Source: Sorangium sp. So ce388 (GTDB taxonomy: Bacteria; Myxococcota_A; Polyangia; Polyangiales; Polyangiaceae). From it: a stretch of DNA of 64,000 nt. The stretch spans positions 9,350,583-9,414,582 of the forward strand of contig NZ_CP150338.1 in assembly GCF_051474125.1 (NCBI RefSeq), written 5' to 3'. Shown piece after piece: positions 13,226 to 36,673 of this stretch (its first letter is position 1; every line of letters begins with the position of its first letter). The notes beneath the pieces are model-generated. The model was given only the letters and a program-made list of their open reading frames with translations, was not told the DNA's origin and ran no database searches. A program made the translations under genes and the position numbers.

Positions 13226-13793
13226 GGGGTGCGCGGGCGTCGGCACGGATCGCGCTAGGATGCGCCGAGAGACGTGCGACCGGCCCCGAGCGGAAGCGCA
13301 CCACGACCGAGCTCTACAGTAGAGCGATGTCCATGACAGACCCATGCGCTCCCTTCCTCGGAGCCGACATGGCCTGAGCCAGAGCACGTTCGCGCGCTCC
13401 GCTGTGCCAGAGCGCGCCATCCACTTCCCTGAAAGGGCCTCAGGGAGAGCCTGAATCGACGTCCTTTCGCTGTGGCATAACGTCTCGATGGGACGCATTG
13501 TCGCCCTCGCGTGGGGCACTTTGCACCTCTGGACGTGCGCGGCGCGGCGTAACGTTCCTGAAAAGGGGGTGAAACACCGTTCCTCTCGTCCTGGAACACC
13601 CCTTGCGATGTCCGGGCGCGTCGGGGCATCGGGGCCCCGGTCATTTTCAGCTGACGCGGCACCGGACAGGCGCGTAACAGGCGGCCCGATCACTGCTGTC
13701 CCTCGTGCCCTCGAGCGTCGACTGGATCACGAAACAGGAGCGACACGGTTTCCCCGATGTGTCGTGTGTTTCGCAGAGAAAGGCGGAGGAGTC

Positions 13794-15557
13794 ATGCCGA
13801 ATCGTCAGGGATGGATCGACGAGGAGTACAGCGGCGGGCGTGGACGCGACGAGGAGAGGTCTGGGCGAAACCAGGGTCAGCGAGGGGATGAGGGATATCG
13901 TGGCGAGCGCGGGGCCGCCGGCGATGCTAGCTACGGACATCGTGGCAATTACGAGCAAGTACTCCAGCGAGACGATCATCGCCATGCCCGAAGCGGTCAG
14001 GACGAGTTCCGTCGGTCGGATCAGCGGGAGTTCGGCGGACGCGGCTACGAGGGTGAGCTCGGCGGACGCGGCCACGAGCGCGACCAGGGCTGGCGCGGCC
14101 AAGGCGGCGAGCGCGGTCACGGTGGCGAGCGCGGCTGGGAAGGCCGGCAGGAGCGCGGCTGGGGACAGCGCGAGGACTTCGGAGGCCAGCACCACGCATC
14201 GGGTGGCCAGCGCGATGACTTCCAGCGAGGAGGTCGCGACGATCTTGGCTCCAGGCGCGGCTACGGCGGCGGCCAGGGCGGCTTCGGTGGCGGCCAGGGC
14301 GGCTTCGGCGGCGGCCAGGGCGGTCACGGCGGCCAAGGTCACTTCGGCGGCGGCCAGGGCAGCTACGGCGGCCAAGGCAGCTTCGGCGGCGGCCAAGGCG
14401 GTTACAGCGGCGGCCAGGGCGGATTCGGCGGCGGCCAGGGCGGCTTCGGTGGCGGCCAGGGCGGCTTCGGTGGTCAGGGTGGATACGGCGGCAGCCAGGG
14501 CGGCTATGGAGGTCAGGGCACCTTCGGCGGCCAGGGCGGATTCACCGGCGGCCAGGGCGGCTACGGCGGCAGCCAGGGCGGCCAGGGCGGCCAGGGCTAT
14601 TTCGGCAGCGAGCATGAGCTCGGCGGCGGCCGGGGTGGTCATGGCGGGCAGGGTGGATTCGGCGGCAGCCAGGGCGGCTACGGCGGCGGCCAGAGCAACT
14701 TCGGCGGTCAGGGTGGATTCGGCGGCAGCCAGGGCGGCTACGGCGGCGGCCAGAGCAGCTTCGGCGGTCAGGGTGGATTCGGCGGCAGCCAGGGCGGCTA
14801 TGGCGGCGGCCAGGGTAGCTTCGGCGGCCAGGGTGGATTCGGTGGCCAGGGTGGATCTGGTGGCAGCCAGGGCGGCTTCGGTGGCCAGGGAGGCTTCGGC
14901 GGAGGCCAGCACCAGGGCTACGGAGTCCGCGGCGGCCTCCGGCAGTGGGCCGACGACGAGCGCGGCTGGACCGAGCGTTCCGGGCAGCAGCGCGGCTACG
15001 AGGGACAGGGATTCCGCGGCGATCAGGGCTCTTACCCCCAGTCGGGTGGGCAGGGCTTCGGCGGTCAGGGCCACCAGTCCGGCGGACGGAGCTTCCTCGA
15101 TACCGTTGGGCAGGGTGGAGGAGTCGGCGGTTCGCGCGGTCGCGCGCCCAAGGGCTACAAGCGCTCGGACGACCGGATTCGCGAGGACATCTGCGACCAG
15201 ATCTCCGAGCACCCGGACCTCGACGCGAGCGACGTCGAGGTGAAGGTCCAGAACGGCGAGGTCGTCCTCTCCGGGACCGTCCGCGAGCGCCGCTTCAAGC
15301 ACCAGCTCGAGTCGCTCGCGGAGCGGATCTCGGGCGTGAACGACGTGCGGAACGAGATCCGGATGTACCGAGAGCAGCAGCAGGGCGAGGCGAAGACGGG
15401 CTCCGGGCTCTCGTCGGGCGAGCGCTCCACCGCGTCCGGCACCACCGGGGGCCTCTCCGGCTCCACGGCGGGCGCTTCCGGCACCGCGACCTCCGTCGGC
15501 GCCACGTCGTCGTCGGAGACGAAGAACAACGAGTCGTCGCGCCGTAACGCCTCGTAG
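13794..15557 (+). CDS. Glycine-rich low-complexity protein with about 40 GGQGGFGG repeats and a C-terminal BON domain.
   Basis: ATG at 13794 with an AGGCGGAGGAG SD. It has an R/E/D/G-rich N-terminus, a 24-nt tandem coding repeat across ~14270-14900, and a C-terminal BON-like block (DASDVEVKVQNGEVVLSGTV....LAERISGVNDVRNEI). Confidence 0.65.
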   Translation: MPNRQGWIDEEYSGGRGRDEERSGRNQGQRGDEGYRGERGAAGDASYGHRGNYEQVLQRDDHRHARSGQDEFRRSDQREFGGRGYEGELGGRGHERDQGWRGQGGERGHGGERGWEGRQERGWGQREDFGGQHHASGGQRDDFQRGGRDDLGSRRGYGGGQGGFGGGQGGFGGGQGGHGGQGHFGGGQGSYGGQGSFGGGQGGYSGGQGGFGGGQGGFGGGQGGFGGQGGYGGSQGGYGGQGTFGGQGGFTGGQGGYGGSQGGQGGQGYFGSEHELGGGRGGHGGQGGFGGSQGGYGGGQSNFGGQGGFGGSQGGYGGGQSSFGGQGGFGGSQGGYGGGQGSFGGQGGFGGQGGSGGSQGGFGGQGGFGGGQHQGYGVRGGLRQWADDERGWTERSGQQRGYEGQGFRGDQGSYPQSGGQGFGGQGHQSGGRSFLDTVGQGGGVGGSRGRAPKGYKRSDDRIREDICDQISEHPDLDASDVEVKVQNGEVVLSGTVRERRFKHQLESLAERISGVNDVRNEIRMYREQQQGEAKTGSGLSSGERSTASGTTGGLSGSTAGASGTATSVGATSSSETKNNESSRRNAS

Positions 15558-15707: not shown

Positions 15708-16817
15708 TCAGCGAAGCTGCCTGAGCATCTCTTCGCGCTCCGCGGCGAGCTGCCCTTGCGAGAACTCCCGCGCGTGGGCCTCGAGCAGCCGGCGCGCCTC
15801 GAGGTCGGCCATGGCCTCGTGGGCCTCGACGGCCCTCCGGGCGTCCCGGATCAGGCTCCGCTCACGCTCGTTGACGGCCGATTGAACGGCGCTCGCCGGG
15901 GACGAGGCACGGGGCCGCGTCGTCGCCAGGGGAACGGGCTTGCTGCTCACCATGGCCTCGGTGCGCGCGCTGGTTCCTCCCGCCAGCGACGAGCTCTCGT
16001 CGGTGGCGGGCGTGGCGGGCGTGGCGGGCGTCGCGGCGGCCTGCACGCCGTCTCGGACGCCGGCGGCCGCGACGTCCTGCGCTACGGGCGCGGTCCCAGG
16101 CGCGCGGTCCGCCGTCCGCAACCGCGACGGTTCCAGGCTGGGCAAGGGGGGAACCGCAGCGACGAGAGCACCGGTCAGCACGACGATCGCCCCCTGGACG
16201 AGGATCCTCACGCCCAGACGGCGCAGCCAGGCCGGCCGCGACGCGCGACGGTACAGCCCCAACGTCAGCGGCACACAGGGGGTTTCTTCGTGTCCGCGCG
16301 AACGTCGCTGCGCTCTCCACCGTCGCGCCGCGAGCTCCAGCTGTTCCCAGCCTCGGCGGTGCTGCGTCCTCACCGTCGCCAAGGGGAGCTCCAGCTGGGC
16401 GGCGATCTCGGAGAGCGGGATCTCCTCCAGCTCGTGCTTGATCAGCAGAGCCCGGTATCCGGGGTCGATCCGGCCGATCAGGTCGCGCAGCACCTTTTCC
16501 CGCTGCCGCAAGCGGAGCAATTCTTCTGGAGTTGGGCACTCGCTCCGGAGCTCGTGATCATCAAACGACGTCAGCACCTCTCCCCGCCGGCGCGCGTCGC
16601 GGATGTGATTACGCGCCCGGTTGAGGACGATCGTTGTGTGGTACGGCGCCGGATCCACACCCAGCTCGGTCCGCTGGTCCGCTTCCAGCCCTCGCAGGAG
16701 CGCGTCCTGGGCGACGTCCTCGGCGCTTTGCGCCGGGACACCGCGACGCCTGGCCAGGCGTCGGTAGCGATCGAAGTCGGCGAAGTTGATCGGGGGCTTG
16801 CCCACGGTGGGAAGCAC
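15708..16817 (-). CDS. ECF-type sigma-70 family factor with a C-terminal TM/Pro-Ala-rich extension.
   Basis: Region-2-like (DVAQDALLRGLE) and region-4-like (IPLSEIAAQLELPLATVRTQHRRG) segments are present. They are followed by a TM helix (LVQGAIVVLTGALVAAV) and an extended tail. Confidence 0.75.
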   Translation of the reverse strand: MLPTVGKPPINFADFDRYRRLARRRGVPAQSAEDVAQDALLRGLEADQRTELGVDPAPYHTTIVLNRARNHIRDARRRGEVLTSFDDHELRSECPTPEELLRLRQREKVLRDLIGRIDPGYRALLIKHELEEIPLSEIAAQLELPLATVRTQHRRGWEQLELAARRWRAQRRSRGHEETPCVPLTLGLYRRASRPAWLRRLGVRILVQGAIVVLTGALVAAVPPLPSLEPSRLRTADRAPGTAPVAQDVAAAGVRDGVQAAATPATPATPATDESSSLAGGTSARTEAMVSSKPVPLATTRPRASSPASAVQSAVNERERSLIRDARRAVEAHEAMADLEARRLLEAHAREFSQGQLAAEREEMLRQLR

Positions 16818-17034
16818 ACCTGAGCCGCCCGAAACGCTTCAGGAAAATGCATCGGTCGCCAAGTTCGGCAGGATATTGTACTCCTTGTGCCCACACGGAC
16901 ACCTTCGGGATGCCTGGTGCTGGACGTCGACGCCTGCTTTACGGTCTCGTCCTATTTGTTCTCGCCAGGAACGTCATTTCACGGCCTTCCCGCGGATGTT
17001 GACGCCACGCGACGCGCGTAAGTACCGTCGGTGC

Positions 17035-18150
17035 ATGCGTTACGTTGCGCATGCGCTCTCACTTCTTCTCTCGCTGGGGGCCGTCACGGGCTTCACGAGC
17101 CCGGCCAGCGCAGAGGATGTCCATTCGAAGGGAACACCGAGCAACGGTTCATCCATGGTGAAGGACCTCGTTCGCCGTGGTCGGAGAGCGCGCGATCAGG
17201 GGCGGTGGACCGAGGCGCACGCCGCCTACAAGGCGGCCTTCGAGGCGACGGACCCCGCGTCCGGCACGGAGCTCGAGCGCGCCGAGATCGCTGGGGAGCT
17301 CGGGCTAACAGAGCTCGCGCTGCGCAAGTACCGCGACGCGGCCGAGCACCTGGCGTGGAGCCTCGAGCAGCGCGAGGCGCTTCCTCCGGCGCAGCAACGG
17401 AGGTTCGGGGAAGGACTCCGTAAAGTGAGGCCGTTCGTCGCGACGCTGATTCTCGCCGTGGATCCGCCGGACGCCGAGGTGTTCGTCGACGGCAAGGCCA
17501 TCGGCCGGACCGCGCGGACGTACAAGCTGTTCTTGGAGTCCGGCCAGCACATCGTGCGAGCCCGCGCGCCGGGTCACGGAGAATCGCTGCATGGCTTACG
17601 CGCCGTGGCAGCTGCGGAGCACGAGATCTCGATAAAGCTTCCACAGGCGGCGGTGAGCAGCGCCAGCGACAAGGCGCCGGCGGTGCCGAGGCCCGCGAGC
17701 GCGTCGCCCCCTGCGCGCGCGAAGGATCCAGGCCCGCCCGCGGACCCGTGGGCTTCCTGGCCGGGGACGCTGCGCATCGCCGGCATCGGCTTGACGGCGG
17801 CAACAGGCTCGCTCGGCGCGGTGTTCATGATTCGCGCGAGCACAGCGGATGGGGACCTGGAGGAGCGGAACAGGAGGCTCGACGCCGCGGGGGTCTCGCA
17901 GGGGATCTGTCGGGAACCACCGAAGCCGGCGGTGTGCTCCGAGCTGACGCGCCTCCGGCGAGCGCGCGACCTCTTCGCCGGGCTCGGCACGGCGCTGGTG
18001 GTGACGAGCGGCGTCGTGGGCGCCGCGACCCTGGCTTCGTTCTTCACGGATTTCTCCTTTCTGCGGGCTGAACCCATGGGAGCTCGGCTCGCGCTGACGC
18101 CGGCGGTCACGCCGGCGCAGGTCGGCCTCGTGGCACACGGCGCGTGGTGA
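17035..18150 (+). CDS. Secreted TPR-like/PEGA-domain protein with a C-terminal TM segment, paralogous in layout to 5531..6538.
   Basis: Signal peptide MRYVAHALSLLLSLGAVTGFTSPASA. Helical repeats are followed by a PEGA-like block (LILAVDPPDAEVFVDGKAIGRT...GQHIVRARAPGH) and C-terminal hydrophobic helices. Confidence 0.6.
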   Translation: MRYVAHALSLLLSLGAVTGFTSPASAEDVHSKGTPSNGSSMVKDLVRRGRRARDQGRWTEAHAAYKAAFEATDPASGTELERAEIAGELGLTELALRKYRDAAEHLAWSLEQREALPPAQQRRFGEGLRKVRPFVATLILAVDPPDAEVFVDGKAIGRTARTYKLFLESGQHIVRARAPGHGESLHGLRAVAAAEHEISIKLPQAAVSSASDKAPAVPRPASASPPARAKDPGPPADPWASWPGTLRIAGIGLTAATGSLGAVFMIRASTADGDLEERNRRLDAAGVSQGICREPPKPAVCSELTRLRRARDLFAGLGTALVVTSGVVGAATLASFFTDFSFLRAEPMGARLALTPAVTPAQVGLVAHGAW

Positions 18151-19793
18151 TCAGGGAGCAAGGCATGCCTCTTCGCGAAGTGCGACGAATGCGATTGCTG
18201 CTCACCGTGGGGGCCCTCTCCACGGGCGGCGCGGGCAGCCTCTCCGGGTGCGCTTACGGTGACGGCTGCTACGACGAGCGCACGTGCCTGTCGCCGCCGG
18301 AGTCTCTCTGTGACGGCGACCCGGCCACGGCGATGGCGCTCGACGCGTGCGGGGTGTTCGTCAGCGAGCAGGGCGACGACGACAGCCCCGGCACGAAGGA
18401 CGCGCCGGTGAGGACGTTACAACGCGCGATCGGCCTCGCCGCACACGTTCGAGGCAACGGCCAAGCGCCGACCCGACGCGTGTACGCGTGCGGCGGGGTG
18501 TTCGAGGAGGCGATCTCGCTCTCTCAAGGAGTCGACCTCTGGGGCGGCCGTCAGTGTGCCGGCGGCGACTGGTCCTACGGCGGGCCGCTCGACGAGCAGA
18601 ACGCGTCGACCGTCATCGCGCCGCCCGTCGGGATCCCGGTGCGGGTCGTCGGGGGGGACGACGCGGTCACCGCGGTGGACGACGCGACGTCGGTGATCTT
18701 CGGCGTGCGCGCCGTGGCGGCCGACGCCTCCGCGAGCGATGGCAAGTCGTCGATCGCGATGATCCTGGAGCATGGGGCCAGGGCGATCGTGCAGTCGAGC
18801 GTGATCCTCGCGGGCGATGGCAAGGATGGAGAGCCGGGCGAGGACGCGCCGAGCTTCCGCGCGAACGCCGGCGTTCTGGGGAACGACGGCGCGGACGCAT
18901 GTACGGCGAACGTGGCGCCAGGCGCCCTTCCGGTCGTGACGGTGTGCGGCGACGGCATCGAGTCGACGGGTGGCCAGGGGGGCGATGGTGGCCTCCAGGC
19001 CGGCCGCGATGGAGCGTCAGGGCTGCCGGAGCGGGTCGGGACTCCGGACAACATCGGCCTGGGTGGTAGTGGCGCGTCCAGCATGACGTGCACGGAAGGG
19101 GGTCGCGGAGCAGACGGCGCCGATGCGGAGCGCGCTGCCGGAGCAGTGGATCCTGGTCTCCTGGGCGTCGATGGATGGGTCGGCGTTCGCGGGAACGACG
19201 GGAAGCCGGGCGGCGTCGGTCAGGGCGGCGGTGGGGGTGGGGGCGGCAAAGGGCACGGCCCCATGAACGCGTGTTCGACAGGTCGTCCCCAGGGCGGTGC
19301 GGCCGGTGGATCAGGCGGCAGCGGCGGCTGCGGGGGCAAGGGGGGCAAGGGGGGCGGCTACGGCGGCGCGAGCATCGCGATCGCGGCCCTGCAGGGGAGC
19401 GCCCTCACGGTCGATGACAGCACGGTTCTCGGGGCCAAGGGCGGCAACGGTGGCGTCGGCGGAACGGGCCAGTGGGGAGGATTAGGCCCTGACGGTGGCC
19501 ACGGTGGGCACAGTCTTGGGCCCGACCCGTCGCGAGGCTGCGCCGGCGGCGGTGGCGGCAACGGCGGCCGCGGGGGCGATGCTGGCGGCGGTCTCGGGGG
19601 CCACTCGTTCGGCATCGGCTCCGTGGGCGCCTCTGTGGCCATCTCGGAGACGGCGACGGTCTCGCCCGGACAAGCCGGCACCGGGGGGCTCGGCGGCAAT
19701 TCAACCCCGGAACGCCCGCTCGGCAAGGGGCAGGACGGGACGGCGGCGTTCTGGTACCGGTTCGATGCGCCAGCGCCTGAACCGCCTCAATGA
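18144..19793 (+). CDS. Lipoprotein Z1 with a right-handed beta-helix-type N-terminal module and a Gly-rich (GGxGG) C-terminal region.
   Basis: Lipobox LSGC. The CGVFVSEQGDDDSPGTKDAPVRTLQRAI motif is typical of beta-helix (DUF1565-like) proteins. GGNGG/GGGGG tracts run toward the C-terminus. The exact start is uncertain (18144, 18165 or 18189). Confidence 0.6.
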   Translation: MVIREQGMPLREVRRMRLLLTVGALSTGGAGSLSGCAYGDGCYDERTCLSPPESLCDGDPATAMALDACGVFVSEQGDDDSPGTKDAPVRTLQRAIGLAAHVRGNGQAPTRRVYACGGVFEEAISLSQGVDLWGGRQCAGGDWSYGGPLDEQNASTVIAPPVGIPVRVVGGDDAVTAVDDATSVIFGVRAVAADASASDGKSSIAMILEHGARAIVQSSVILAGDGKDGEPGEDAPSFRANAGVLGNDGADACTANVAPGALPVVTVCGDGIESTGGQGGDGGLQAGRDGASGLPERVGTPDNIGLGGSGASSMTCTEGGRGADGADAERAAGAVDPGLLGVDGWVGVRGNDGKPGGVGQGGGGGGGGKGHGPMNACSTGRPQGGAAGGSGGSGGCGGKGGKGGGYGGASIAIAALQGSALTVDDSTVLGAKGGNGGVGGTGQWGGLGPDGGHGGHSLGPDPSRGCAGGGGGNGGRGGDAGGGLGGHSFGIGSVGASVAISETATVSPGQAGTGGLGGNSTPERPLGKGQDGTAAFWYRFDAPAPEPPQ

Positions 19794-19830: not shown

Positions 19831-21360
19831 ATGAGAAAGAGCACCGCGGCGACCTTGGTCCTCCTGCTGTCCCCGTGGGCGATCGGCTGCGGAACTGCGC
19901 CCGGCGTGAACGACCCTGGCGTGACGCCTTGTGAAGGCACCTCGTGCGAGGACGAGCCGCCCCCGGAGTCGGTCTGCGTCGAGCACGTCGCCGCCGATAT
20001 CCTCGACGACGGCTGCGGCGTATTCGTCGCTGGAGCCTTGGGTGGGGGCGACGACAGGAACCCCGGCACGAAGGCGAAGCCGGTGTTCACCGTCGAGCGC
20101 GCCGTCGAGCTCGCGCGCACTGGACGAGGGCGCGTGTTCATCTGCAATGACGGATTCGTTGTGCATCAGATCAGGATGCCCTCCGGCGTGGACCTCCTCG
20201 GGGGCTTCGACTGCCGGAAATGGGTCCGCAGCGATCTGCCCAAGCGGTCCTCGTTTTCTCACGAGCGGGTCTTCGGCCCCATGGTGATCGTCGAACCCGC
20301 GGGGCCCGAGGACAGGGGGGCCGCGGACGGGGTATCGACGCTCGCCGATCTCTACGTTCGCTCGTGGGGCCCGGTCGGCGTGCTCGTTCAGTCGGGCACG
20401 GCGGTGGAGATCCTTCGGAGCGAGATCTCCGCCAGCGTAGGGGATGGAAACGGACACGGCGAGAAGTGGCCGACCACGCAACCGGACGGACCGGATGGCA
20501 TGTTCGGTGGGGACGCGTGCTCGGCGACCGTCGTCGCTGGCGGGCCTGCGGCCGTGAACCGGTGCGAGAGCGGGCTCACGAGCATCGGTGGCAAGGGAGG
20601 CGACGGGCTGCCCGACAGCGCCGAGGATGGAGACGATGGGGAGCCCGCCGACCTTTTGCCAGCCGCACGCGGTGGTAGCGGGGAGCGGGACAACCTCAGT
20701 TGCAGCAGCGGATCCGAGGGCGGCCCGGGGGCTCCGGGAACACAGGGCGCCCCCAGCAAGGGCATCGGGCGCCTCACCGAGACAGGATGGAAGGGCGACA
20801 CGGGCGGCGAGGGGACCTGGGGCACGCCGGGCCAGGGCGGCGGCGGCGGCGGCGGTCGCCGGGGCGGGCTCGCCGTGTGCGGCGTGGCCTCGAAGGGTGG
20901 CCCAGGAGGAGGCTCGGGAGGGGCCGGCGGTTGCGGAGGCCGCGGAGGCCGCGGGGGAGCGAACGGACAGCCGTCCATCGGCGTCCTCGCGCTTCACGCC
21001 CGAGTGACCGTGCGCGACACCAAGATCACGGCGGACGCTGGCGGCAACGGCGGCGACGGCGGGGAACCCCAGGACGGCGGCCGAGGCGGCCGCGGCGCAC
21101 CGGGCGGAACGCTGGGGGATGAGCTCGCCGCCTGCTTCGGCGGTCGGGGCGGCCAAGGAGGGCCCGGCGGCTACGGCGGACCCGGGCGCGGCGGCGACTC
21201 GATCGGCATCGCCTACATCGACGAGGACCAGCTCACGCTCGAGGGCGTCACCATCGAGACCGGGCAACCGGGCAAGGGCGGCACGAGCTGGAACTACGAT
21301 GGCAGCACGACGGTTGGAGAGAGCGGCGAGGCCCACGAGACGCTTCGCTTTCCGGAATAG
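19831..21360 (+). CDS. Lipoprotein Z2, paralogue of Z1 with a beta-helix module and Gly-rich C-terminus.
   Basis: ATG at 19831 after an AGGAGACG SD. Signal/lipobox MRKSTAATLVLLLSPWAIGC. Shares the CGVFVAGALGGGDDRNPGTKAKPVFTVERAV motif. Its last ~555 nt are repeated at 24606..25155. Confidence 0.65.
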   Translation: MRKSTAATLVLLLSPWAIGCGTAPGVNDPGVTPCEGTSCEDEPPPESVCVEHVAADILDDGCGVFVAGALGGGDDRNPGTKAKPVFTVERAVELARTGRGRVFICNDGFVVHQIRMPSGVDLLGGFDCRKWVRSDLPKRSSFSHERVFGPMVIVEPAGPEDRGAADGVSTLADLYVRSWGPVGVLVQSGTAVEILRSEISASVGDGNGHGEKWPTTQPDGPDGMFGGDACSATVVAGGPAAVNRCESGLTSIGGKGGDGLPDSAEDGDDGEPADLLPAARGGSGERDNLSCSSGSEGGPGAPGTQGAPSKGIGRLTETGWKGDTGGEGTWGTPGQGGGGGGGRRGGLAVCGVASKGGPGGGSGGAGGCGGRGGRGGANGQPSIGVLALHARVTVRDTKITADAGGNGGDGGEPQDGGRGGRGAPGGTLGDELAACFGGRGGQGGPGGYGGPGRGGDSIGIAYIDEDQLTLEGVTIETGQPGKGGTSWNYDGSTTVGESGEAHETLRFPE

Positions 21361-21403
21361 CCGCGGTCACGTCACGGAAGGACGGCGCAGATCTCCGCGA
21401 CGG

Positions 21404-22513
21404 CTATGAGTATGAGGAGGCGCCAGAATCCGCGTCGCCGAGCCAGCTATCGAGGAAGCACGAGGCCCAGGCGACCATGGCGGCCGGCGGCGCGCCCTGA
21501 CCGTCCCACGAAGCGACCAGCGCCTCGAGCTCGCGGATGGCAGCTTCGAGCTCGCGCTTGGAAGCGACTCCGCGCGGAGTCTTCGGCGGATCCATGAGCA
21601 CCCGAGTTTTTGCAAGCACGCTCAATATTTCCTCTTTGCGCAGGACCCCATCTGTTGTCACCCCCCCGAAGAAGGCGCCCTGCGCCTCTGGCATCAGGCT
21701 CCACAAGATGTTGTAGAGCGCCGCCAGTACCTTGAGGACTGCAACGAATCTTCCTGTCAGGTTGCTCGCATCAACGTCTACGCCAGGTGTCCGCACTTCA
21801 CCTGGCGAAGCGGGCACCCATTCCTGACCGACCGTAAAGAAGCAGTCGTAGAGTCTAGCCTCCCCGACGGTCCGCAAGTTCACCGTCACGTCCGGCACGA
21901 GCACGACGCCGACCTCAGGCGGCATGCGTTCACAACCGAAGGTCGCTTCGATATCGCGGGCTATCCACTCTACGTACGGCAGTTCGTCGGCCGATAGCTC
22001 GAAGTCGATGTACGACTCATTGAACGTGACACTCATTAGCCTTTCCTCATCCGAATTTGACACGAGCTCCGGATCGCGCGGACTTCGTGAGATGAAGAAG
22101 TTTATACCACCAAAGACAACCCTGAATCTCTCTGGCTGCCTCACAAACTGGACCAGGCGATAGCCATAGACAATATAGTAAGGAACGAGGAAACTAATTT
22201 TAAACCACAGCGTTCGGCCGTTGGCTGCGCTTGGTAGAGAAAACGAAAAAGAGTAGCAAGCGTCCAAGGACCCCGTAGGCAGGTGGAACGAATCGTTCAT
22301 GACAGCGCAATCAGGGAATCGCTCTTCGATCCGACGCAGCAACGCAGGCCAACGTTCGTCCGCTGCCGCGCGTCGCCGCGCGGCCACTAGACGGCCGTAC
22401 TCCTCGGTTTCCTTGTAGCGCTGAATGTCGTCTTGCTCGATCCCGTCAATCCCACGTGGGTGATATCTGTGGACAACGTCCAGCAGATCTCTAACACTGT
22501 GCTTCATAGCCAT
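21404..22513 (-). CDS. X1: cytoplasmic protein of unknown function (~370 aa). Candidate cognate/immunity partner of Y and paralogue of X2.
   Basis: No signal peptide. About 50% aa identity to X2 (25167..26282) over the full length. Low-GC (~48-52%) DNA. Start taken at MAMKHSV with an AAGGCGGA SD. Confidence 0.5.
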   Translation of the reverse strand: MAMKHSVRDLLDVVHRYHPRGIDGIEQDDIQRYKETEEYGRLVAARRRAAADERWPALLRRIEERFPDCAVMNDSFHLPTGSLDACYSFSFSLPSAANGRTLWFKISFLVPYYIVYGYRLVQFVRQPERFRVVFGGINFFISRSPRDPELVSNSDEERLMSVTFNESYIDFELSADELPYVEWIARDIEATFGCERMPPEVGVVLVPDVTVNLRTVGEARLYDCFFTVGQEWVPASPGEVRTPGVDVDASNLTGRFVAVLKVLAALYNILWSLMPEAQGAFFGGVTTDGVLRKEEILSVLAKTRVLMDPPKTPRGVASKRELEAAIRELEALVASWDGQGAPPAAMVAWASCFLDSWLGDADSGASSYS

Positions 22514-22615
22514 ACCGCTTCCGCCTTGAGTTCGGGCGCGAATGTTCCCCCCCCCTTTTCCGTCCCATCCCTGCCTCCTATTGACCTCGGGGGCGTCCAA
22601 GGATGCAGGGAAGGA

Positions 22616-23338
22616 TCAATTCATGAGCCTGGCACCTAGGCCCCTGTAATTTTCATCCTTCTCAAACCGTTGGCGCATCTCAGTCTTGAATTTCTCGCAG
22701 AATATACCAGGTGGAAGATCGGTAAGCCCTTCTTTGTAAAACCTTTCAGCTATCTGATTCGCCAGATCGGAACTGATGAACGCTGCCCTCTCCGCCGAGA
22801 TCTCTCCCCAAGCCCGACTTCGTAATGGCATCCCGATGTGAACCGTGCACGCGTCGACGCCTCGGTCACCTCGTCTGAACACTAACCCCGCCTTCGCTTC
22901 CTGCCAACCACCTGCGACGGTCCCGTCGTAAGCTACGATGGTGACAAAATTGAACTCCGACGGTCCGAATACCTAAATGTTGCAACCCATTTGCGGAGAG
23001 CCGCTCTGCTGGCATGGGTCTGTCGGGCTCGTCGGGCTGGCAGTCGGCCTATCCGAGCTGTCGCTCGGGCGTTCCTCTTCCTCTCCGTCTTCATCCTCCG
23101 TTTTGTTGCACTGGATCTTCTCCTTCTTGCCATCCTGCGGGCCTTCTGGCGGCTCCGCCCCGAAGGCCCCCGATGCGCCGGAGCTGAAGACGGGAACGGG
23201 CGGCCCGACGGGTCCACCTCCCCCCTCACCCTTCTCCCACTCCTCTCGGGGATAGCAGTCTCCCACCGTCCAGTTGCACGCCGATAGCACCCAGACGGCG
23301 ACAGCCACAACCAGCAGCAGACTTCTTTTTGCGTTCAT
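22616..23338 (-). pseudogene. Y1: lipoprotein gene disrupted by an in-frame TAG. The N-terminal 122 codons are identical to Y2 and the C-terminal domain is diverged.
   Basis: MNAKRSLLLVVAVAVWVLSAC... is identical to Y2 up to the linker. The reading then runs ...MGCNI-stop(TAG)-VFGPSEFNFVTIVAYDG..., continuing as ORF 22616..22882. That ORF is homologous (~45%) to the Y2 C-terminal domain. Confidence 0.5.
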
Positions 23339-23868
23339 TTTGCACCCCATCGAAGCACGGGACCGGCGGCGACAAGCACCGACCAATGACCTGGAAGCAC
23401 AAGGCTGCTCCCGCCGACCCAGTCCACATTGGCGCTCACCGACACGCCGAGCGGTCCGGCGACGTACGCGTTGGCTTGCGCATGCGCGCCCACCGCCATC
23501 CCGGCGACGCGCCCGCACAAGGCGCTGCCGCACGCCGGCATGAAGTAGATCGCGGGTGATGGCCCCGCGCTGACATCGCCGCTCTTCCACGCGTACCCGA
23601 CCGCGACGGACGTGTGATTGTACACGCCGGCCCCACCGATCTGGATGGGCGGCACGACGCTGCACAGATCGTGAACCCTGAACAGGAGCTCTCTCGTGAT
23701 GTGCCACGATATCCCCGCGTTCGGTCCCACCGTGAGGCGCCGAGCGGTGCCGGCCTGGATCCACCCGACACCCACGCCGGTGCTCAGCTCGGCCGCCTCC
23801 ACCTGCGCCGGAACGAGCGCGAGAGCGACCATCGCCGCCGATGGGAGCCGCCGGGATGTCGTCCTCAT
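23335..23868 (-). CDS. W1: small secreted protein (177 aa) with a signal peptide. It is Gly-rich and possibly an outer-membrane beta-barrel-like accessory protein.
   Basis: Signal peptide MRTTSRRLPSAAMVALALVPAQVEA. Alternating hydrophobic patterns are visible. It is identical to W2 and its stop overlaps the Y start. Confidence 0.5.
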   Translation of the reverse strand: MRTTSRRLPSAAMVALALVPAQVEAAELSTGVGVGWIQAGTARRLTVGPNAGISWHITRELLFRVHDLCSVVPPIQIGGAGVYNHTSVAVGYAWKSGDVSAGPSPAIYFMPACGSALCGRVAGMAVGAHAQANAYVAGPLGVSVSANVDWVGGSSLVLPGHWSVLVAAGPVLRWGAK

Positions 23869-24124
23869 CGCCTCCTTTCGCCTCCCAGCAACAGCCGAGC
23901 AACGTGACGGCGCGAGCCATTCTTCGGAATGTGGAATTGGGCGTCAAACGGAAACTGGGCGAGAACATCGCAATGGACGTGGGCAACCGTCCGAGGCGTG
24001 CACTGTTGCGCGCCCACCTGCGCGGCGCGAGTGCTTGCCAGCTCGATCACCGCGCTCGACCGGGACGCCGAGTGGCGATGGGGATCTGCCCAAGCCAGAA
24101 GGACCACGCGGTAAGAAGCGCCCT

Positions 24125-24605
24125 CCCCTCCTGCAGACCGGCCGCCCTCCTGCGCAACCTCGCCGTCCGCCTGCGCAGACCGGCCGCTCCTCCTGCGCAG
24201 GTCCGCCGCCCGCCAACACAGACCCGCCGCCTCTGCTGCGCCCCCCCGCCGCCCGCCTGCGCAGACCGGCCGCCCCTCCTGCGCAGCCCCGCCGCCCGCC
24301 TGCGCAAACCGGCCGCCCCTCCTGCGCAGCCCCGCCGCCCCTCCTGCGCAGCCCCGCCGCCCGCCTGCGCAAACCGGCCGCCCCTCCTGCGCAGCCCCGC
24401 CGCCCTCCTGTGCACCTGATTTCGTGAACTACGCTACAGTCGCGCGCCCCCTGCGCGGTCCGTTCTGTACCCTACACAACAAAATTGCGGCTCCTGCGCA
24501 GCCCCGCCGCCCTCCTGCGCCGCTCGTCGCCCCCTCCTGCGCACCCCCGCCGCCTTCCTGCGCAACCCAGCCCTCCTCCTGCGCAGCCCTTTCCGCGGGC
24601 GGCGA
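24125..24605. repeat. Array A: about 17 degenerate 21-22 bp direct repeats with a conserved CCTGCGCA core, plus a unique ~70-bp insert.
   Basis: Units such as cctgcgcagccccgccgcccg / cctgcgcaaaccggccgcccct recur with a two-helical-turn period. TGCGCA is palindromic. A unique AT-richer island (24413-24482: ...gatttcgtgaactacgctacagtcgcg...) sits inside. The array lies upstream of W1. Confidence 0.7.
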
Positions 24606-25155
24606 GGGGACCTGGGGCACGCCGGGCCAGGGCGGCGGCGGCGGCGGCGGTCGTCGGGGCGGGCTCGCCGTATGCGGCGTGGCCTCGAAGGGTGGCCCAG
24701 GAGGAGGCTCGGGAGGTGCCGGCGGTTGCGGAGGCCGAGGAGGCCGCGGGGGAGCGAACGGACAGCCGTCCATCGGCGTCCTTGCGCTTCACGCCCGGGT
24801 GACCGTGCGCGACACCAAGATCACGGCGGACGATGGCGGCTACGGCGGCGACGGCGGGGAACCCCAGGACGGCCGCCGAGGCGGCCGAGGCGCACCGGGC
24901 GGAATGCCGGAGGATGAACTCGTCGCGTGTTACGGCGGCCGGGGCGGCCAAGGAGGGCCCGGCGGCTACGGCGGACCCGGGCGCGGCGGCGACTCGATCG
25001 GCGTCGCCTACATCGACGAGGACCAGCTCACGCTCGAGGGCGTCACCATCGAGACCGGACGGCCGGGCGAGGGCGGCACGAGCTGGAACTACGACGGAAG
25101 CACGACGGTGGGAGAGAGCGGCGAGGCCCACGAGACGCTTCGCTTTCCGGAATAG
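24606..25155 (+). pseudogene. Z': 3' fragment of a Z2-like beta-helix lipoprotein gene (C-terminal ~183 codons only).
   Basis: About 95% nt identity to 20806..21360, including the stop. The ORF-track N-terminus (24424..24605) is translated repeat array, not a credible protein start. Confidence 0.55.
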
Positions 25156-25166
25156 CCGAAGTCACG

Positions 25167-26282
25167 TCATGGGAGATCGGCGCGGAGATCGGCGACCGAG
25201 TCCACGGGCCAACTCGCCAGGAAGCTGGAGGCCCAAGCGACCATGGCGGCCGGCGGCTCGCCTTCACCGTCCCACGAAGCGACCAGCGCTTCGAGCTCGC
25301 GCTTGGCCGCCATGGCGCGGAGAGTCTTCGGTGATTCGTCGTGCGGACGCATGCGCGCAAGCTCCTCCAGCATCTTGTCCTTGTGCAGGAAGCCGTCTGT
25401 AGACGCCGACCAATAAAGCCCAAACGACTGTCGATATGGCTCAGGCAACTTCAGAATCATCCTGGGCAAATCGAGCAGCATTCCGATCTGGTAGTGCGCC
25501 CGGAGCACGGTAAGCACCCCAATAAACCGAGCTGTCAAGCTGCTCGACTCAAGCGTCACGACCGCTCCTCGCTCTGGCGGCGACGGTTCCACCCACTGAC
25601 TATCTATGGTAAAAAGACAATCGTACAACGTCGCACCGCGCATGCCAACCACCACGCCCGGCACGAGAGTGGTACCGACCTCTGGTGGCATGGGCTCGCA
25701 ACCGAAGGTCGACTCGATGTCATGGGCGATCCACGTCGCGCAAGGCCGCTCGTCCGGCGCCAGATCGAAGGTGAGCTCATGCCGGGTGACGGTCGCGCTA
25801 TGTAGCCTCTCATCATACGGGTTCAGTACGAGATCGGGCCCCAGAGCACTTCGTGGAATGGAAAAATTGATACCATACGGAACCACGAAGCCGGCAGGCG
25901 GCCTAACAAGATCGATCATGCGATAGCTGTATACGACATAGTACGGAGCCAGAAAACTCACGTGAAACCAAAGCGTTCGACGGTCGGGTGCGTTCGGCAG
26001 ATCGACCGTGAACGAATAACACGCGTCACAGGCTCCGGCGGGCAGGTGAAGTGATCGGTTCATGAGTAGCACGTCAGGGAATCGCTCTGATATGCGACGT
26101 CGCATGGCATGCCAGCGTTCGTCCTTCGATGCTTGGATCCGCGCAGCGACGAGCCGAGCGTGTTCTTCAGTCTGTTCGCGCTGGGAGTCGTCCTGCCAAA
26201 ATTGGTTCGGGTCGGGACCGCCGATCCCACGGGGGAAATACCGGTAGACGACGTCCAGTAGTTGACCGACCGTGTGCTTCAT
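25167..26282 (-). CDS. X2: cytoplasmic protein of unknown function (371 aa), candidate immunity/cognate partner of Y2.
   Basis: Starts with the ATGA overlap on the Y2 stop (translational coupling). Low-GC DNA. About 50% identical to X1. Confidence 0.55.
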   Translation of the reverse strand: MKHTVGQLLDVVYRYFPRGIGGPDPNQFWQDDSQREQTEEHARLVAARIQASKDERWHAMRRRISERFPDVLLMNRSLHLPAGACDACYSFTVDLPNAPDRRTLWFHVSFLAPYYVVYSYRMIDLVRPPAGFVVPYGINFSIPRSALGPDLVLNPYDERLHSATVTRHELTFDLAPDERPCATWIAHDIESTFGCEPMPPEVGTTLVPGVVVGMRGATLYDCLFTIDSQWVEPSPPERGAVVTLESSSLTARFIGVLTVLRAHYQIGMLLDLPRMILKLPEPYRQSFGLYWSASTDGFLHKDKMLEELARMRPHDESPKTLRAMAAKRELEALVASWDGEGEPPAAMVAWASSFLASWPVDSVADLRADLP

Positions 26283-26992
26283 GACTTGTTGACCACCACA
26301 CCAAGTTTCTTGTATTGCTCCGCGAACGTATTCTTTACGTTCGTGAAAAACTCTGAGCAGAATATGCCAGGTGGCAGCGCAAAACGACCCGCCCTCTCCA
26401 TCTCACCTGCGACCATATTTGTCACTTCAGCGCTGTACATTGCCGCATTGTCAGCCGATATACCCCCCCAAAGGTGATTTCTTATAGGCATTCCAATGCG
26501 AAGAAAACACGCTGCTACGCCATCTTCTAGGTAGATGATCAATCCTGACTTTGCCTCCTGCCAACCACCTGCCACATCAGCCCCATCGTCGGCGACGATC
26601 GTGACAAACTTGAAATCAGACGGGCCGAACCGCTTACTTGCGCACCCCATGGTCGGAGCGCCGCTCTGCTGGCAGGGGTCCGGCGGGCTCGTCGGGCTGG
26701 CAGTCGGCCTATCCGAGCTGTCGCTCGGGCTTTCCTCTCCGTCTTCATCCTCCGTTTTGTTGCACTGGATCTTCTCCTTCTTGCCATCCTGCGGGCCATC
26801 TGGCGGCTCCGCCCCGAAGGCCCCCGATGCGCCGGAGCTGAAGACGGGAACGGGCGGCCCGACGGGTCCACCTCCCCCCTCACCCTTCTCCCACTCCTCT
26901 CGGGGATAGCAGTCTCCCACCGTCCAGTTGCACGCCGATAGCACCCAGACGGCGACAGCCACAACCAGCAGCAGACTTCTTTTTGCGTTCAT
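26279..26992 (-). CDS. Y2: intact lipoprotein (237 aa) with a signal peptide and lipobox, a G/P/S/acidic linker and a ~110-aa variable C-terminal domain. Candidate polymorphic toxin.
   Basis: MNAKRSLLLVVAVAVWVLSAC (LSAC lipobox). The start overlaps the W2 stop (ATGA). The C-terminal domain is FGPSDFKFVTIVADDG...LPPGIFCSEFF in ~50% GC DNA. The ORF-track upstream extension (to 27640) is an artefact. Confidence 0.55.
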   Translation of the reverse strand: MNAKRSLLLVVAVAVWVLSACNWTVGDCYPREEWEKGEGGGGPVGPPVPVFSSGASGAFGAEPPDGPQDGKKEKIQCNKTEDEDGEESPSDSSDRPTASPTSPPDPCQQSGAPTMGCASKRFGPSDFKFVTIVADDGADVAGGWQEAKSGLIIYLEDGVAACFLRIGMPIRNHLWGGISADNAAMYSAEVTNMVAGEMERAGRFALPPGIFCSEFFTNVKNTFAEQYKKLGVVVNKS

Positions 26993-27522
26993 TTTGCACC
27001 CCATCGAAGCACGGGACCGGCGGCGACAAGCACCGACCAATGACCTGGAAGCACAAGGCTGCTCCCGCCGACCCAGTCCACATTGGCGCTCACCGACACG
27101 CCGAGCGGTCCGGCGACGTACGCGTTGGCTTGCGCATGCGCGCCCACCGCCATCCCGGCGACGCGCCCGCACAAGGCGCTGCCGCACGCCGGCATGAAGT
27201 AGATCGCGGGTGATGGCCCCGCGCTGACATCGCCGCTCTTCCACGCGTACCCGACCGCGACGGACGTGTGATTGTACACGCCGGCCCCACCGATCTGGAT
27301 GGGCGGCACGACGCTGCACAGATCGTGAACCCTGAACAGGAGCTCTCTCGTGATGTGCCACGATATCCCCGCGTTCGGTCCCACCGTGAGGCGCCGAGCG
27401 GTGCCGGCCTGGATCCACCCGACACCCACGCCGGTGCTCAGCTCGGCCGCCTCCACCTGCGCCGGAACGAGCGCGAGAGCGACCATCGCCGCCGATGGGA
27501 GCCGCCGGGATGTCGTCCTCAT
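26989..27522 (-). CDS. W2: small secreted protein identical to W1.
   Basis: Identical translation to 23335..23868. First gene of the W-Y-X operon. Confidence 0.5.
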   Translation of the reverse strand: MRTTSRRLPSAAMVALALVPAQVEAAELSTGVGVGWIQAGTARRLTVGPNAGISWHITRELLFRVHDLCSVVPPIQIGGAGVYNHTSVAVGYAWKSGDVSAGPSPAIYFMPACGSALCGRVAGMAVGAHAQANAYVAGPLGVSVSANVDWVGGSSLVLPGHWSVLVAAGPVLRWGAK

Positions 27523-27778
27523 CGCCTCCTTTCGCCTCCCAGCAACAGCCGAGCAACGTGACGGCGCGAGCCATTCTTCGGAATGTGGAATTGGGCGTCA
27601 AACGGAAACTGGGCGAGAACATCGCAATGGACGTGGGCAACCGTCCGAGGCGTGCACTGTTGCGCGCCCACCTGCGCGGCGCGAGTGCTTGCCAGCTCGA
27701 TCACCGCGCTCGACCGGGACGCCGAGTGGCGATGGGGATCTGCCCAAGCCAGAAGGACCACGCGGTAAGAAGCGCCCT

Positions 27779-28340
27779 CCCCTCCTGCAGACCGGCCGCC
27801 CTCCTGCGCAACCTCGCCGTCCGCCTGCGCAGACCGGCCGCTCCTCCGCTCCTCCTGCGCAGGTCCGCCGCCCGCCAACACAGACCCGCCGCCTCTGCTG
27901 CGCCCCCCCGCCGCCCGCCTGCGCAGACCGGCCGCCCCTCCTGCGCAGCCCCGCCGCCCGCCTGCGCAAACCGGCCGCCCCTCCTGCGCAGCCCCGCCGC
28001 CCCTCCTGCGCAGCCCCGCCGCCCGCCTGCGCAAACCGGCCGCCCCTCCTGCGCAGCCCCGCCGCCCTCCTGTGCACCTGATTTCGTGAACTACGCTACA
28101 GTCGCGCGCCCCCCTGCGCAGTCCGTTCTGTACCCTGCACAACAAAATTGCGGCTCCTGCGCAGCCCCGCCGCCCTCCTGCGCCGCTCGTCGCCCCCTCC
28201 TGCGCACCCCCGCCGCCTTCCTGCGCAACCCAGCCCTCCTCCTGCGCAGCCCTTTCTGTGTCCTGCGCAACCCCCGCCCCCCTCCTGCGCAGCCCTTTCT
28301 GTGTCCTGCGCAACACTTCCCCCTCCTGCGCATCCCCCCC
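27779..28340. repeat. Array B: about 26 copies of the CCTGCGCA-core 21-22 bp repeat, a longer version of array A.
   Basis: The first ~330 bp are identical to array A including the AT-richer island (28070-28140). Extra units at 28150-28340 (cctgcgcagccctttctgtgt... variants) follow. Confidence 0.7.
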
Positions 28341-28562
28341 GCCAGCCCCATGGCCCGCTGCTCGCTGCGCGCGCCCGGCACGCCGCCCCGCTCGACTCCG
28401 CGGCACACCACCTCTCTCAACCTCTTAAGCCAGGTACATCCTCGTGACGTGAACGAAACGTGCTCTCTTCTGGCTCATGCCTTAAACCGCCAATACCCTC
28501 GCCGATTCTCCGGCCCCTCAATCCGAGGGGCGCTGGCCCCGACAAGGAGGCGTATCTTTCGC

Positions 28563-33164: not shown

Positions 33165-33315
33165 GCGGCGCTCCCCCGCCCCGGATACGGGGCCACCTCG
33201 ACATTTCCGTGCTCGGCGCGCAGGCGTAGAAGCGCGCCTGTTCGCCGGAAACGCCGATCTGGGCCCGCCGCGTGGCAGGGCCCTCGCGCGCCCTGGCCCC
33301 GACGGTGCTCCAGCA

Positions 33316-36300: not shown

Positions 36301-36611
36301 CGCTGGCGGCGGCCCGCCAGGTGGATACATCGCTGGTTGGTATTGCCAGATGGGGCCCGGAATCCAGGATACACCCACATGGCTCGTCCTCGTCGGGGGG
36401 CTCGCTGCGCTGCGCGTACGCCGGCGCTCCGCGCGGCTCCGCGGTGACGCGGTGACGCGCCCGCGCAGCCCGACGTGACGTCGGTCGACAGCAGCGCTTC
36501 CCTTCGCCATCAATCCGGGGGAATCCACGAGTCGTAGCGTCAGGTGTTCTATGCCGACCAGCGCGTACAGCATGGCTGTACGACGGGACGGCCGATTCGA
36601 GGAGCCTGGCT
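33316..36611. repeat. Tandem duplication unit 1 of the Kelch/MYXO-CTERM gene with its flanks (~3.3 kb).
   Basis: Upstream 60 bp (agctgaacgctcagcgaccgggaggcaccagac.gcggcgaaggaggtactgaATG) and downstream ~150 bp are repeated at 36612..39951. The genes are ~85-90% identical. Confidence 0.7.
33368..36478 (+). CDS. Secreted Kelch-repeat propeller protein with a central Cys-rich domain, a second propeller, a Gly/Ser-rich linker and a MYXO-CTERM-like sorting tail.
   Basis: Signal peptide MQSSWLLGVGLACAAVALPAGEVWA. Recurring LLxDGRVLVxGG Kelch blades. Cys-rich block GGACEASGDCASGFCADSVCCDAAC... A GGSGGEASGAGG repeat. The tail ...WYCQMGPGIQDTPTWLVLVGGLAALRVRRRS is Cys, then TM, then an Arg cluster. 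Confidence 0.8.
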   Translation: MQSSWLLGVGLACAAVALPAGEVWAAGAPSWESLPSMITPRGGHTATLLPDGRVLVAGGHGSDGTVLLREAELYDPASKTWAPAAPLPSPLREVAATVVLPDGLALSTDGEHVEVYSPALDLWSAAAPLTPALTAPKAVLLPGGKLMMLGGASGSLAGSIYDDLAGTWTPIRSLSGAAAATATLLQDGRVLAVNNGRGNIYDPETDSWTPSYGATLWSPTYRATRLASGDVLFVGGYDFSSQTPSQLYLHEADLWLAIPGHDPFYYPYPDCLPVGGGFDSGLGVSLLPSGRVLLTGGMVSYKCGYEDENGQFVVWSRYSEFSAEQAVYDPAWAAWVPLDVEPPETMARAEHTVTSLHDGSVLIAGGLVASDVPAGAPVPTASAMLFHERAPLGGACEASGDCASGFCADSVCCDAACAGACDACAAAAGATKDGACTPLSGTPCDDSDACIEGGVCEAGTCAGGTPAPDGTPCNDGEVCSATSTCEGGACVAASPASCEPPDGCHEPPACDPALGCSGPASEKPDGARCDVEGTPDAWQTAARMPNEMKHAHTATLLQDGTVLVMGTEDSSGNRWRAMRYDPSLDQWQLIGGVLPVVRSIMYATLLQDGTMLVASRGRVDRFNPATGAWQAAAPMLLSHSAGTVTRLQDGRVLVTGGSAGEAEVYDPAADAWTLVAPGTAGLRSPRATLLQDGRVLVTGGGDDVMLSEVYDPAADVWTPVASMISVRSGYTATLLHDGRVLVLGGNSEGIPLATAELYDPASDTWTPAAEMATRRDGTRAVLLADGRVLVAGNLDGQYSLDYTAELYDPARDIWSPGPAMDMPLTYSVAVRLEDGRVLMAGGRLGSVYYPSPLAHLYVPGQGPGTGVCQAGVCLPSAGGEGGAGGSGGEASGAGGSGGEASGAGGSGGDASGAGGRSDAASGGGMSGSGGSGAGGSGAGGSGGDASTAGGGDTTSTSAGHGSGTGEGGSAGETGAQSGAGGGPPGGYIAGWYCQMGPGIQDTPTWLVLVGGLAALRVRRRSARLRGDAVTRPRSPT

Positions 36612-36673
36612 TTCGCCAGGAGCTGAACGCTCAGCGACCGGGAGGCACCAGACAGCGGCGAAGGAGGTACTGA

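Follow-up and report, generated by a model that had tools for sequence, protein, structure and literature searches.

The stretch analysed here is 64 kb of the genome of Sorangium sp. So ce388 and is referred to as the window, always at its full length. It contains two copies of a three-gene operon on the minus strand, W, Y and X, and each copy includes an island of low guanine-plus-cytosine (GC) content, island 1 at positions 21404-22975 and island 2 at 25167-26645. Each island covers X and the 3' part of Y, which encodes a C-terminal domain (Y-CT) and follows the part for the N-terminal region (Y-NT). The composition, divergence and relatives of these operons suggest that the islands are old, exchangeable alleles of a lineage-specific gene family. 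The genes of the two copies are listed below.

23335-23868, minus strand: W1, 177 aa; the N-terminus resembles a signal peptide, the stop codon shares its bases with the Y1 start (ATGA), and the protein is 100% identical to W2
22616-23338, minus strand: Y1, lipoprotein gene with an in-frame TAG at 22973-22975 (AAG in Y2)
21404-22513, minus strand: X1, 369 aa, intact, with no signal peptide
26989-27522, minus strand: W2, 177 aa, predicted secreted protein
26279-26992, minus strand: Y2, 237 aa, intact lipoprotein with lipobox LSAC
25167-26282, minus strand: X2, 371 aa, whose start shares 4 nt with the end of Y2 (ATGA)

W, Y and X are three uncharacterised protein families without annotation. Scans of W, Y, X, Y1-CT and the neighbouring gene C with Pfam, NCBIfam and PADLOC gave no significant match, and a profile search against the PDB gave none for W and Y and, for X, only CdiI-o11 at a non-significant E = 0.24. 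The N-terminus of Y reads MNAKRSLLLVVAVAVWVLSAC and is a type II (lipoprotein) signal with a lipobox; across the family, Cys21 and the CNWTVGDCYP motif after it vary hardly or not at all. In the AlphaFold2 model of Y, the signal helix is followed by residues 20-118, which are disordered (predicted local distance difference test score, pLDDT, below 50), and by a confident alpha/beta domain at residues 119-237. The disordered part forms a tether of ~100 aa that holds conserved cysteines, and the C-terminal domain measures ~115 aa. The TAG of Y1 sits at the junction between tether and C-terminal domain, and the frame 3' of it is still homologous to Y2-CT. Y2 matches a Sorangium sp. So ce388 protein at 100%. 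The AlphaFold2 model of X2 is also confident (pLDDT 82), and no solved fold was found that convincingly matches it. The barrel-like C-terminus of a TPR/PEGA protein encoded nearby was considered as a homologue of W and rejected (hhalign probability below 1%).

The GC content is 57.4% in island 1 and 57.9% in island 2, compared with 71.0% in the whole window and 71.6% when both islands are taken out. In a scan of the window with 1500-nt segments (mean 0.711, standard deviation 0.037), the two lowest values of the 64 kb are found at 21601-23100 (0.565) and 25301-26800 (0.575), ~3.8 standard deviations under the mean, and the third lowest is 0.619. A GC content of ~50% is reached only by Y-CT (0.51-0.53) and a few 300-nt segments (0.49-0.51). 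The 3' end of X, comprising its ~44 final codons (21404-21535 and 25167-25301), has 70-71% GC, so the true low-GC blocks extend over ~21536-22982 and 25302-26642; within them, 21536-22891 and 25302-26548 have GC contents of 0.563 and 0.565. The final ~43 codons of X1, at 71% GC, belong to the best-conserved part of the family. Elsewhere in the operon, GC is intermediate in Y-NT (0.64-0.66, with 0.73-0.77 at third codon positions, GC3), 0.69 in W and 0.76-0.77 in the tandem-repeat arrays upstream of W.

Codon usage was compared with 16 reference genes, filtered against antisense shadow frames (those with GC2 higher than GC1). These genes have a GC3 of 0.928 +/- 0.042 and a codon adaptation index (CAI) of 0.735 +/- 0.074. 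GC3 is 0.672 and 0.682 in X1 and X2, with CAI values of 0.35-0.37, and 0.585 and 0.542 in Y1-CT and Y2-CT, with CAI values of 0.27 and 0.24. The GC3 z-scores of the island genes against the reference genes are -6 to -9. The deficit lies mainly at synonymous third positions, and GC1 and GC2 of X and Y-CT are likewise somewhat under those of the reference genes. An earlier note on this DNA had described AT-rich islands of ~50% GC that coincide exactly with X and Y-CT, beside W, Y-NT and arrays at genomic GC. The AT-richness is confirmed, and both strings quoted as examples are present, at 22099-22130 in X1 and 26312-26358 in Y2-CT. The mean is ~57-58% rather than ~50%, the end of X is at the GC of the surroundings, and W, Y-NT and the arrays are at genomic GC only roughly. 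The sliding-window GC and CAI comparison that the note had proposed identifies both islands as extreme outliers; their GC does not match the rest of the window, nor their codon usage the reference genes (GC3 0.54-0.68 versus 0.93).

Mosaic structure of the two units

The two operons lie in a 3.7-kb head-to-tail duplication detected by self-blastn, which runs from within gene C, a lipoprotein gene convergent with X1, to the repeat array. Its parts are the following.

20801-24593, no strand: duplication unit 1, with the 3' end of C, X1, Y1 (pseudogene), W1 and array 1, defined by self-blastn and the identity map
24596-28256, no strand: duplication unit 2, with the truncated copy of the C 3' end, X2, Y2, W2 and array 2
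21536-22982, minus strand: diverged low-GC core 1, with X1 codons 1-326, a 102-nt spacer and Y1-CT
25302-26642, minus strand: diverged low-GC core 2, with X2 codons 1-327 and Y2-CT

The junction of the units at 24593/24596 is clean: the array sequence CAGCCCTTTC is followed by CGC and then by GGGCGGCGAGG, which comes from inside gene C. As the junction falls inside gene C, unit 2 has a truncated copy of the C 3' end. Identity between the units is very uneven. In the left arm (20814-21353) it is ~95%. Over 21354-22982 it is 33-75% per 60 nt where the units align, and lower still at the 102-nt spacer of unit 1, which has no counterpart in unit 2. It then climbs from 0.65-0.72 (22866-22982) through 0.87-0.88 (22983-23102) to 0.98-1.00 (from 23103). 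The right arm, 23103-24593 (~1.5 kb), contains W, the 5' part of Y and the repeat array, and is identical to 26757-28256 save for one stretch within the array. The earlier note had read the low GC together with an identity breakpoint. On the right, identity and GC change together; on the left, identity falls at ~21354, ~180 nt before GC does.

The synonymous divergence (dS) between unit 1 and unit 2 is 0 in W, 0.07 in Y-NT, 1.4 in Y-CT, 1.4 in X codons 1-327 and 0.6 in the X tail, and protein identity is 51% for Y-CT and 57% for X. Judged from their sequences, Y1-CT is a homologue of Y2-CT and X1 of X2, and they are not unrelated cassettes. The two units form a three-layer mosaic, with a nearly identical right arm, a left arm of ~95% identity and a core at a dS of ~1.4. 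Since a simple duplication predicts equal divergence everywhere, this inequality requires at least one replacement of a core or a homogenisation of the arms by gene conversion.

Related loci and distribution of the family

For comparison, we used 56 fetched loci that encode relatives of X. Among them, 14 W-Y-X triads of other Sorangium genomes were measured by their identity to the proteins of unit 2. The identity of X to X2 follows that of Y-CT to Y2-CT (Spearman 0.96) and is uncorrelated with that of Y-NT (-0.34) or W (-0.04). In So ce56, for example, identity is 68% for W, 62% for Y-NT, 83% for Y-CT and 92% for X. A two-breakpoint likelihood scan found strong mosaicism in 115 of 120 operon pairs, and the breakpoints cluster in Y codons 80-159 on the 5' side and in X codons 280-339 on the 3' side. 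The core is more similar than the arms in 23 of these 115 mosaic pairs, which rules out rate heterogeneity as the sole cause. X1 is 97.6% identical to a protein of So ce1153 (P0166) and X2 is 96.8% identical to a protein of So ce145 (P0105); Y2-CT is 96.7% identical to a So ce145 protein, and the whole So ce145 Y is 78% identical to Y2. Each of X1 and X2 is thus ~97% like a protein of another strain, yet they share only 57% identity with each other. The earlier proposal that Y-CT and X are exchangeable is borne out by the correlations, the recurrent breakpoints, the pairs with closer cores and these cross-strain relatives.

The core alleles are older than the arms, not faster evolving. Median dS is 1.20 in Y-CT, 0.96 in X codons 1-327, 0.50 in W, 0.43 in Y-NT and 0.30 in the X tail, while the ratio of nonsynonymous to synonymous divergence (dN/dS) is about 0.2-0.5 in every segment (0.29-0.44 beside these medians) and no gene-wide positive selection was found. 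We had considered a fast-evolving cassette and rejected it in favour of old alleles, as dN/dS is about alike in all segments.

Surplus full-length or short X genes are present at eight of the loci (L002, L008, L014, L017, L023, L027, L038 and L039). The short X corresponds to the first ~185-230 residues of X and occurs as a stand-alone gene or fused before a full X in proteins of 553 aa; short or fused forms are found, for example, in the metagenomic proteins P0132, P0137, P0143, P0147 and P0148 and at loci L022 and L034. One X homologue (P0195) carries a C-terminal DUF6968. The 553-aa fusions and the DUF6968 carrier were examined as clues to function and were uninformative, the fusion being a short X-like domain plus a full X. 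In Polyangium fumosum (L049, 1184-6700), genes for an A-like protein (A being the TPR/PEGA protein) and a Cys-rich lipoprotein are followed by short X, Y, short X, Y and short X. In this run, Y-X pairs are arrayed in tandem.

Named homologues of W, Y and X come from Sorangium, Polyangium, Byssovorax, Minicystis and Polyangiaceae metagenome-assembled genomes (MAGs), where they are annotated as hypothetical proteins. The exceptions are two W matches on MAG contigs of 1.8 kb and 3.6 kb labelled Armatimonadota and Fimbriimonadaceae, and many further matches are unnamed metagenomic sequences; the clusters of distant Y-CT matches, too, carry hardly any taxon names. The many Sorangium genomes that returned matches often hold several copies of the family, and the closest X from outside Sorangium is ~50% identical. 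When the Y profile was searched against 1.84 billion representative proteins, the CT domain was found in 479 clusters, and in the best 150 of these 479 matches it is C-terminal on proteins of 110-309 aa, mostly with a signal peptide or lipobox. A tblastn search of X2 and Y2-CT against plasmid and phage collections gave no match. By the sequences found, the W-Y-X cassette is endemic to Polyangiaceae, and the search for the low-GC segments beyond the host lineage, suggested earlier as a check of foreign origin, did not find them there among the named matches or in the plasmid and phage collections.

Origin of the low GC

Our reading, which we hold with a probability of about 0.6, is that the islands are the allelic cores (Y-CT and the first ~325 X codons) of two tandem copies of a Polyangiaceae-endemic W-Y-X operon, with the mechanism and function proposed below. 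The family as a whole is low in GC: mean GC is 0.607 in X (GC3 0.735, 68 X-like matches), 0.545 in Y-CT (GC3 0.63, 24 copies), 0.631 in W and 0.637 in Y-NT, with flanks at 0.70. The islands therefore do not mark the So ce388 copies as special or recent. Along the operon, GC3 and the divergence between copies are inversely related over 39 windows of 20 codons each (Spearman -0.68 with all positions counted and -0.73 with third positions, whose distances are partly composition-dependent). Where X stands without an adjacent Y (L014, L017, L019 and L024-L031), its GC3 is ~0.71-0.79, versus ~0.64-0.73 in triads; short X genes reach 0.80-0.87.

Under the proposed mechanism, the conserved arms (W and Y-NT on one side, the X 3' end and C on the other) would serve as homology arms. 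Whole Y-CT and X cores would pass from strain to strain or from one paralogous locus to another by exchange, or the arms would be homogenised by gene conversion. The cores may be long-lived specificity classes within Sorangium that no longer recombine with each other, and recombination or gene conversion would hold the arms similar and GC-rich. The low GC would then be a quasi-equilibrium of non-recombining, weakly codon-adapted cores, not the un-ameliorated trace of a donor, and it may be due to the cores having escaped GC-biased gene conversion, or to selection.

In our view it is quite unlikely that the cores instead came recently from a donor of lower GC by horizontal transfer, were joined to a native 5' region and still have the donor's composition; horizontal acquisition and such a graft are what the earlier note had proposed. 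Their GC3 and CAI lie far beyond the reference genes, as in horizontally acquired islands, each core is much nearer to a protein of another strain than to the core of the neighbouring unit, and Polyangiaceae lineages or contigs of ~55-57% GC carry Y-X at that GC. Yet every Sorangium copy is low in GC, whether triad or orphan X and at any divergence, and in other genomes W and Y-NT also fall under their flanks. The nearest X outside Sorangium is at only ~50% identity. Allele classes separated by a dS of ~1 or more all keep a low GC3, so the composition looks stable rather than transitional. Of the features by which genomic islands are recognised, atypical composition and codon usage are present. 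Signs of mobility were not found: there is no tRNA gene within the 64-kb window, a scan gave no inverted repeats flanking the islands, plasmid and phage collections hold no match, no mobility genes are present, and the neighbours are genes for an extracytoplasmic function (ECF) sigma factor, a TPR/PEGA protein and lipoproteins. Relatives in unrelated taxa combined with absence from close relatives is also not what we see, as the family is present across Sorangium genomes and has the same composition at every locus. The foreign-graft proposal is thus not supported. An external pool of low-GC alleles as the source of the cores is unlikely as well. That amino-acid composition or chance accounts for the low GC, which would then have no evolutionary meaning, is very improbable. 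GC1 and GC2 of X and Y-CT do lie somewhat below the reference genes, but the largest deficit is at synonymous third positions, the islands are the two most extreme segments in 64 kb, and the pattern recurs in dozens of independent loci, which refutes this account.

Possible function, neighbouring genes and significance

We propose that Y is an outer-membrane lipoprotein whose tethered C-terminal domain would be matched by the cognate X, with W as a secreted helper. By analogy with sitBAI, the cassette would then pair a lipoprotein effector with a cognate partner that resembles an immunity protein, and in unit 1 the effector gene Y1 would have been knocked out by the nonsense codon while the partner X1 was kept. 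The surplus X genes, the tandem Y-X pairs and the loss of Y1 beside a retained X1 fit this logic of effector and protection.

The sitBAI cassettes of Myxococcus encode SitA lipoprotein toxins delivered by outer-membrane exchange (PMC5562445, PMC8546572), and the SitA families are defined by an N-terminal escort domain of ~375 aa (PMC8546572). The exchange genes traAB have been reported in Sorangium (S. cellulosum; PMC6372800). W-Y-X resembles sitBAI in its gene order, with a type I signal-peptide protein, an overlapping lipoprotein gene and a partner gene without signal peptide, and in a lipoprotein with a lipobox, a conserved N-terminal part and a variable C-terminal part. Both occur in myxobacterial hosts as several divergent cassettes per genome, and in some SitA families, too, the toxin domains form one family with allelic variation only. 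W, with its apparent signal peptide and a stop that overlaps the Y start, has the architecture expected of a SitB; the 120 listed of 148 W homologues include no Myxococcus protein. Unlike SitA, Y (237 aa) has only the ~100-aa disordered, Cys-containing tether and no ~375-aa escort domain; Y-CT resembles neither nucleases nor any known toxin, no immunity family was matched by X (370 aa), and W-Y-X lies off any prophage-like element and is linked to an ECF-sigma cluster. Because both the escort domain and a recognisable toxin domain are absent from Y, we regard the cassette as sitBAI-like in its possible working and do not assign it to that group.

A second comparison is with polymorphic toxin-immunity systems such as Rhs and CdiA-CT/CdiI (Zhang et al. 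2012, PMC3482391). W-Y-X shares with them a junction, formed by recombination, at which a conserved N-terminal part gives way to a variable C-terminal part, the inheritance of the C-terminal part and the downstream gene as one, and extra downstream partner genes, X1 being kept beside an inactivated Y1. It differs in that the Y-CTs do not belong to diverse families; they are all homologous (51% between the two copies) and, in the best 150 of the 479 matches, are found on small secreted proteins or lipoproteins only, and Y has no known delivery domain. The variable module of W-Y-X is lower in GC than the conserved part. Polymorphic toxin systems likewise have C-terminal tips and immunity modules with a higher AT content than their conserved core. 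The arrangement of one effector-domain family and one partner family in co-varying specificity classes is also that of the colicin E-type DNases and their Im proteins, with the differences that folds and sequences are unrelated and that W-Y-X is chromosomal and multi-copy rather than plasmid-borne.

The genes and elements next to the two operons are listed below.

15708-16817, minus strand: ECF sigma factor S (Pfam), with a ~200-aa C-terminal extension
16786-18150, plus strand: TPR/PEGA protein A (Pfam)
18144-19793, plus strand: protein B, 549 aa, unannotated
19831-21360, plus strand: gene C, convergent with X1 and encoding a Gly-rich lipoprotein (509 aa); the final ~560 nt of the gene are the left arm of the duplication
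24596-25155, plus strand: truncated duplicate of the C 3' end, ~95% identical to 20801-21360
24116-24593, no strand: array 1, GC-rich 21/43-nt tandem repeats upstream of W1, GC 0.768; unit 1 ends inside this array
27770-28343, no strand: array 2, the same repeats upstream of W2, reaching ~90 nt beyond the end of unit 2
23919-23947, minus strand: sigma-70-like promoter match TTGACG-17-AAGAAT, ~50 nt upstream of W1, a consensus match only

An identical promoter-like site, again a consensus match only, is found at 27573-27601 upstream of W2. The array repeats have periods of 21, 43 and 65 nt and the core motif CTCCTGCGCAG. None of the 56 related loci contains this motif three or more times, and the arrays thus look particular to the So ce388 locus. 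The S-A-B-C cluster adjoins W-Y-X or X, in convergent orientation, at more than 20 fetched Sorangium loci (including L001, L005-L009, L013, L020 and L040), in several paralogous copies per genome.

Several observations weigh against our reading. Y-CT and X are adjacent, so their co-variation could be due to linkage alone. X is predicted to be cytoplasmic and Y extracytoplasmic, so direct contact between them would need a translocation step. In the best 150 of the 479 matches, Y-CT is never on a large delivery protein and only on small secreted proteins or lipoproteins, and its domains all belong to one homologous family. The GC-biased gene conversion account is correlational, and Polyangiaceae lineages or contigs of ~55-57% GC (L058, L032, L033, L037 and L048) carry Y-X at their own GC. 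The ties of X, Y-X or W-Y-X to the ECF sigma, TPR/PEGA and lipoprotein cluster at so many Sorangium loci are atypical for toxin cassettes.

The last point leads to a serious rival, which we consider rather unlikely: Y-X, with W, may belong to an envelope module controlled by the ECF sigma factor, together with S, A, B and C, and its polymorphism would insulate paralogous modules against cross-talk. The order W>Y>X> <C<B<A S> recurs at the more than 20 Sorangium loci, some orphan X genes keep C-B-A-S alongside, and each genome has several copies. At L058, genes for a sigma factor, a TPR/PEGA-like protein, a Cys-rich lipoprotein, a Y-like protein and a short X follow one another in one direction as one operon with a 4-nt Y/X overlap, and at the Polyangium loci L049 and L050 genes for an A-like protein and a Cys-rich lipoprotein stand beside Y and X genes. 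However, about one third of the Sorangium loci and most non-Sorangium loci have, within the fetched flanks, Y-X without S-A-B-C, and in Sorangium W-Y-X and S-A-B-C are convergent and not co-transcribed. Orphan and tandem X genes, and an intact X1 beside a Y1 inactivated by a nonsense codon, are easier to understand under a logic of effector and protection, and neither X nor Y matches a known sigma or anti-sigma domain in any part. We note that L058 (1311-5948), a distant relative, is a JGI metagenome contig with a GC of 0.571, that its Y-like protein and short X measure 154 aa and 179 aa, and that these genes are at the contig's GC.

Other repeats were found in the window. A second head-to-tail duplication, of 33310-36615 and 36616-39947 at ~90% identity, encodes two Kelch-repeat proteins of ~1036 aa in tandem. 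The gene for a BON-domain protein (13488-15557) has internal diverged tandem repeats at ~14251-14909 that are ~77-79% identical at several offsets, coding sequence at 44496-45997 contains self-similar repeats of 72-79% identity, and 48616-52086 encodes a protein of 1156 aa with seven DUF4215 repeats. The third-lowest GC of the window (0.619 over 151-1650) falls in 40-2022, which encodes a beta-propeller/BNR/tectonin-like protein of 660 aa with a GC3 of 0.78.

Variable accessory cassettes are commonly AT-richer than the host genome, and the compositional finding itself is ordinary. The case shows clearly that low GC need not mean foreign origin: it is here a stable feature of an endemic gene family and tracks allele age and lack of recombination. 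The cassette family is of moderate interest: its modular design for recombination is clear, it is multi-copy in genomes that are the largest known among bacteria, and Y and X have no convincing structural relative. Tentatively, W-Y-X could be a previously undescribed system, spread across Polyangiaceae, in which polymorphic lipoproteins of the outer membrane act as effectors and have cognate partners inside the cell. It would be linked to an ECF-sigma envelope module and would sort Sorangium strains into compatibility classes for kin discrimination, possibly by outer-membrane exchange, and its cores would be ancient balanced alleles whose low GC is kept by lack of recombination; as a whole we regard this as possible but doubtful. 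If Y and X are part of ECF-sigma signalling, they would represent a new kind of polymorphic envelope module. If they are an effector and its protective partner, lipoprotein-based kin discrimination would extend from Myxococcus to Sorangiineae, with entirely different proteins.

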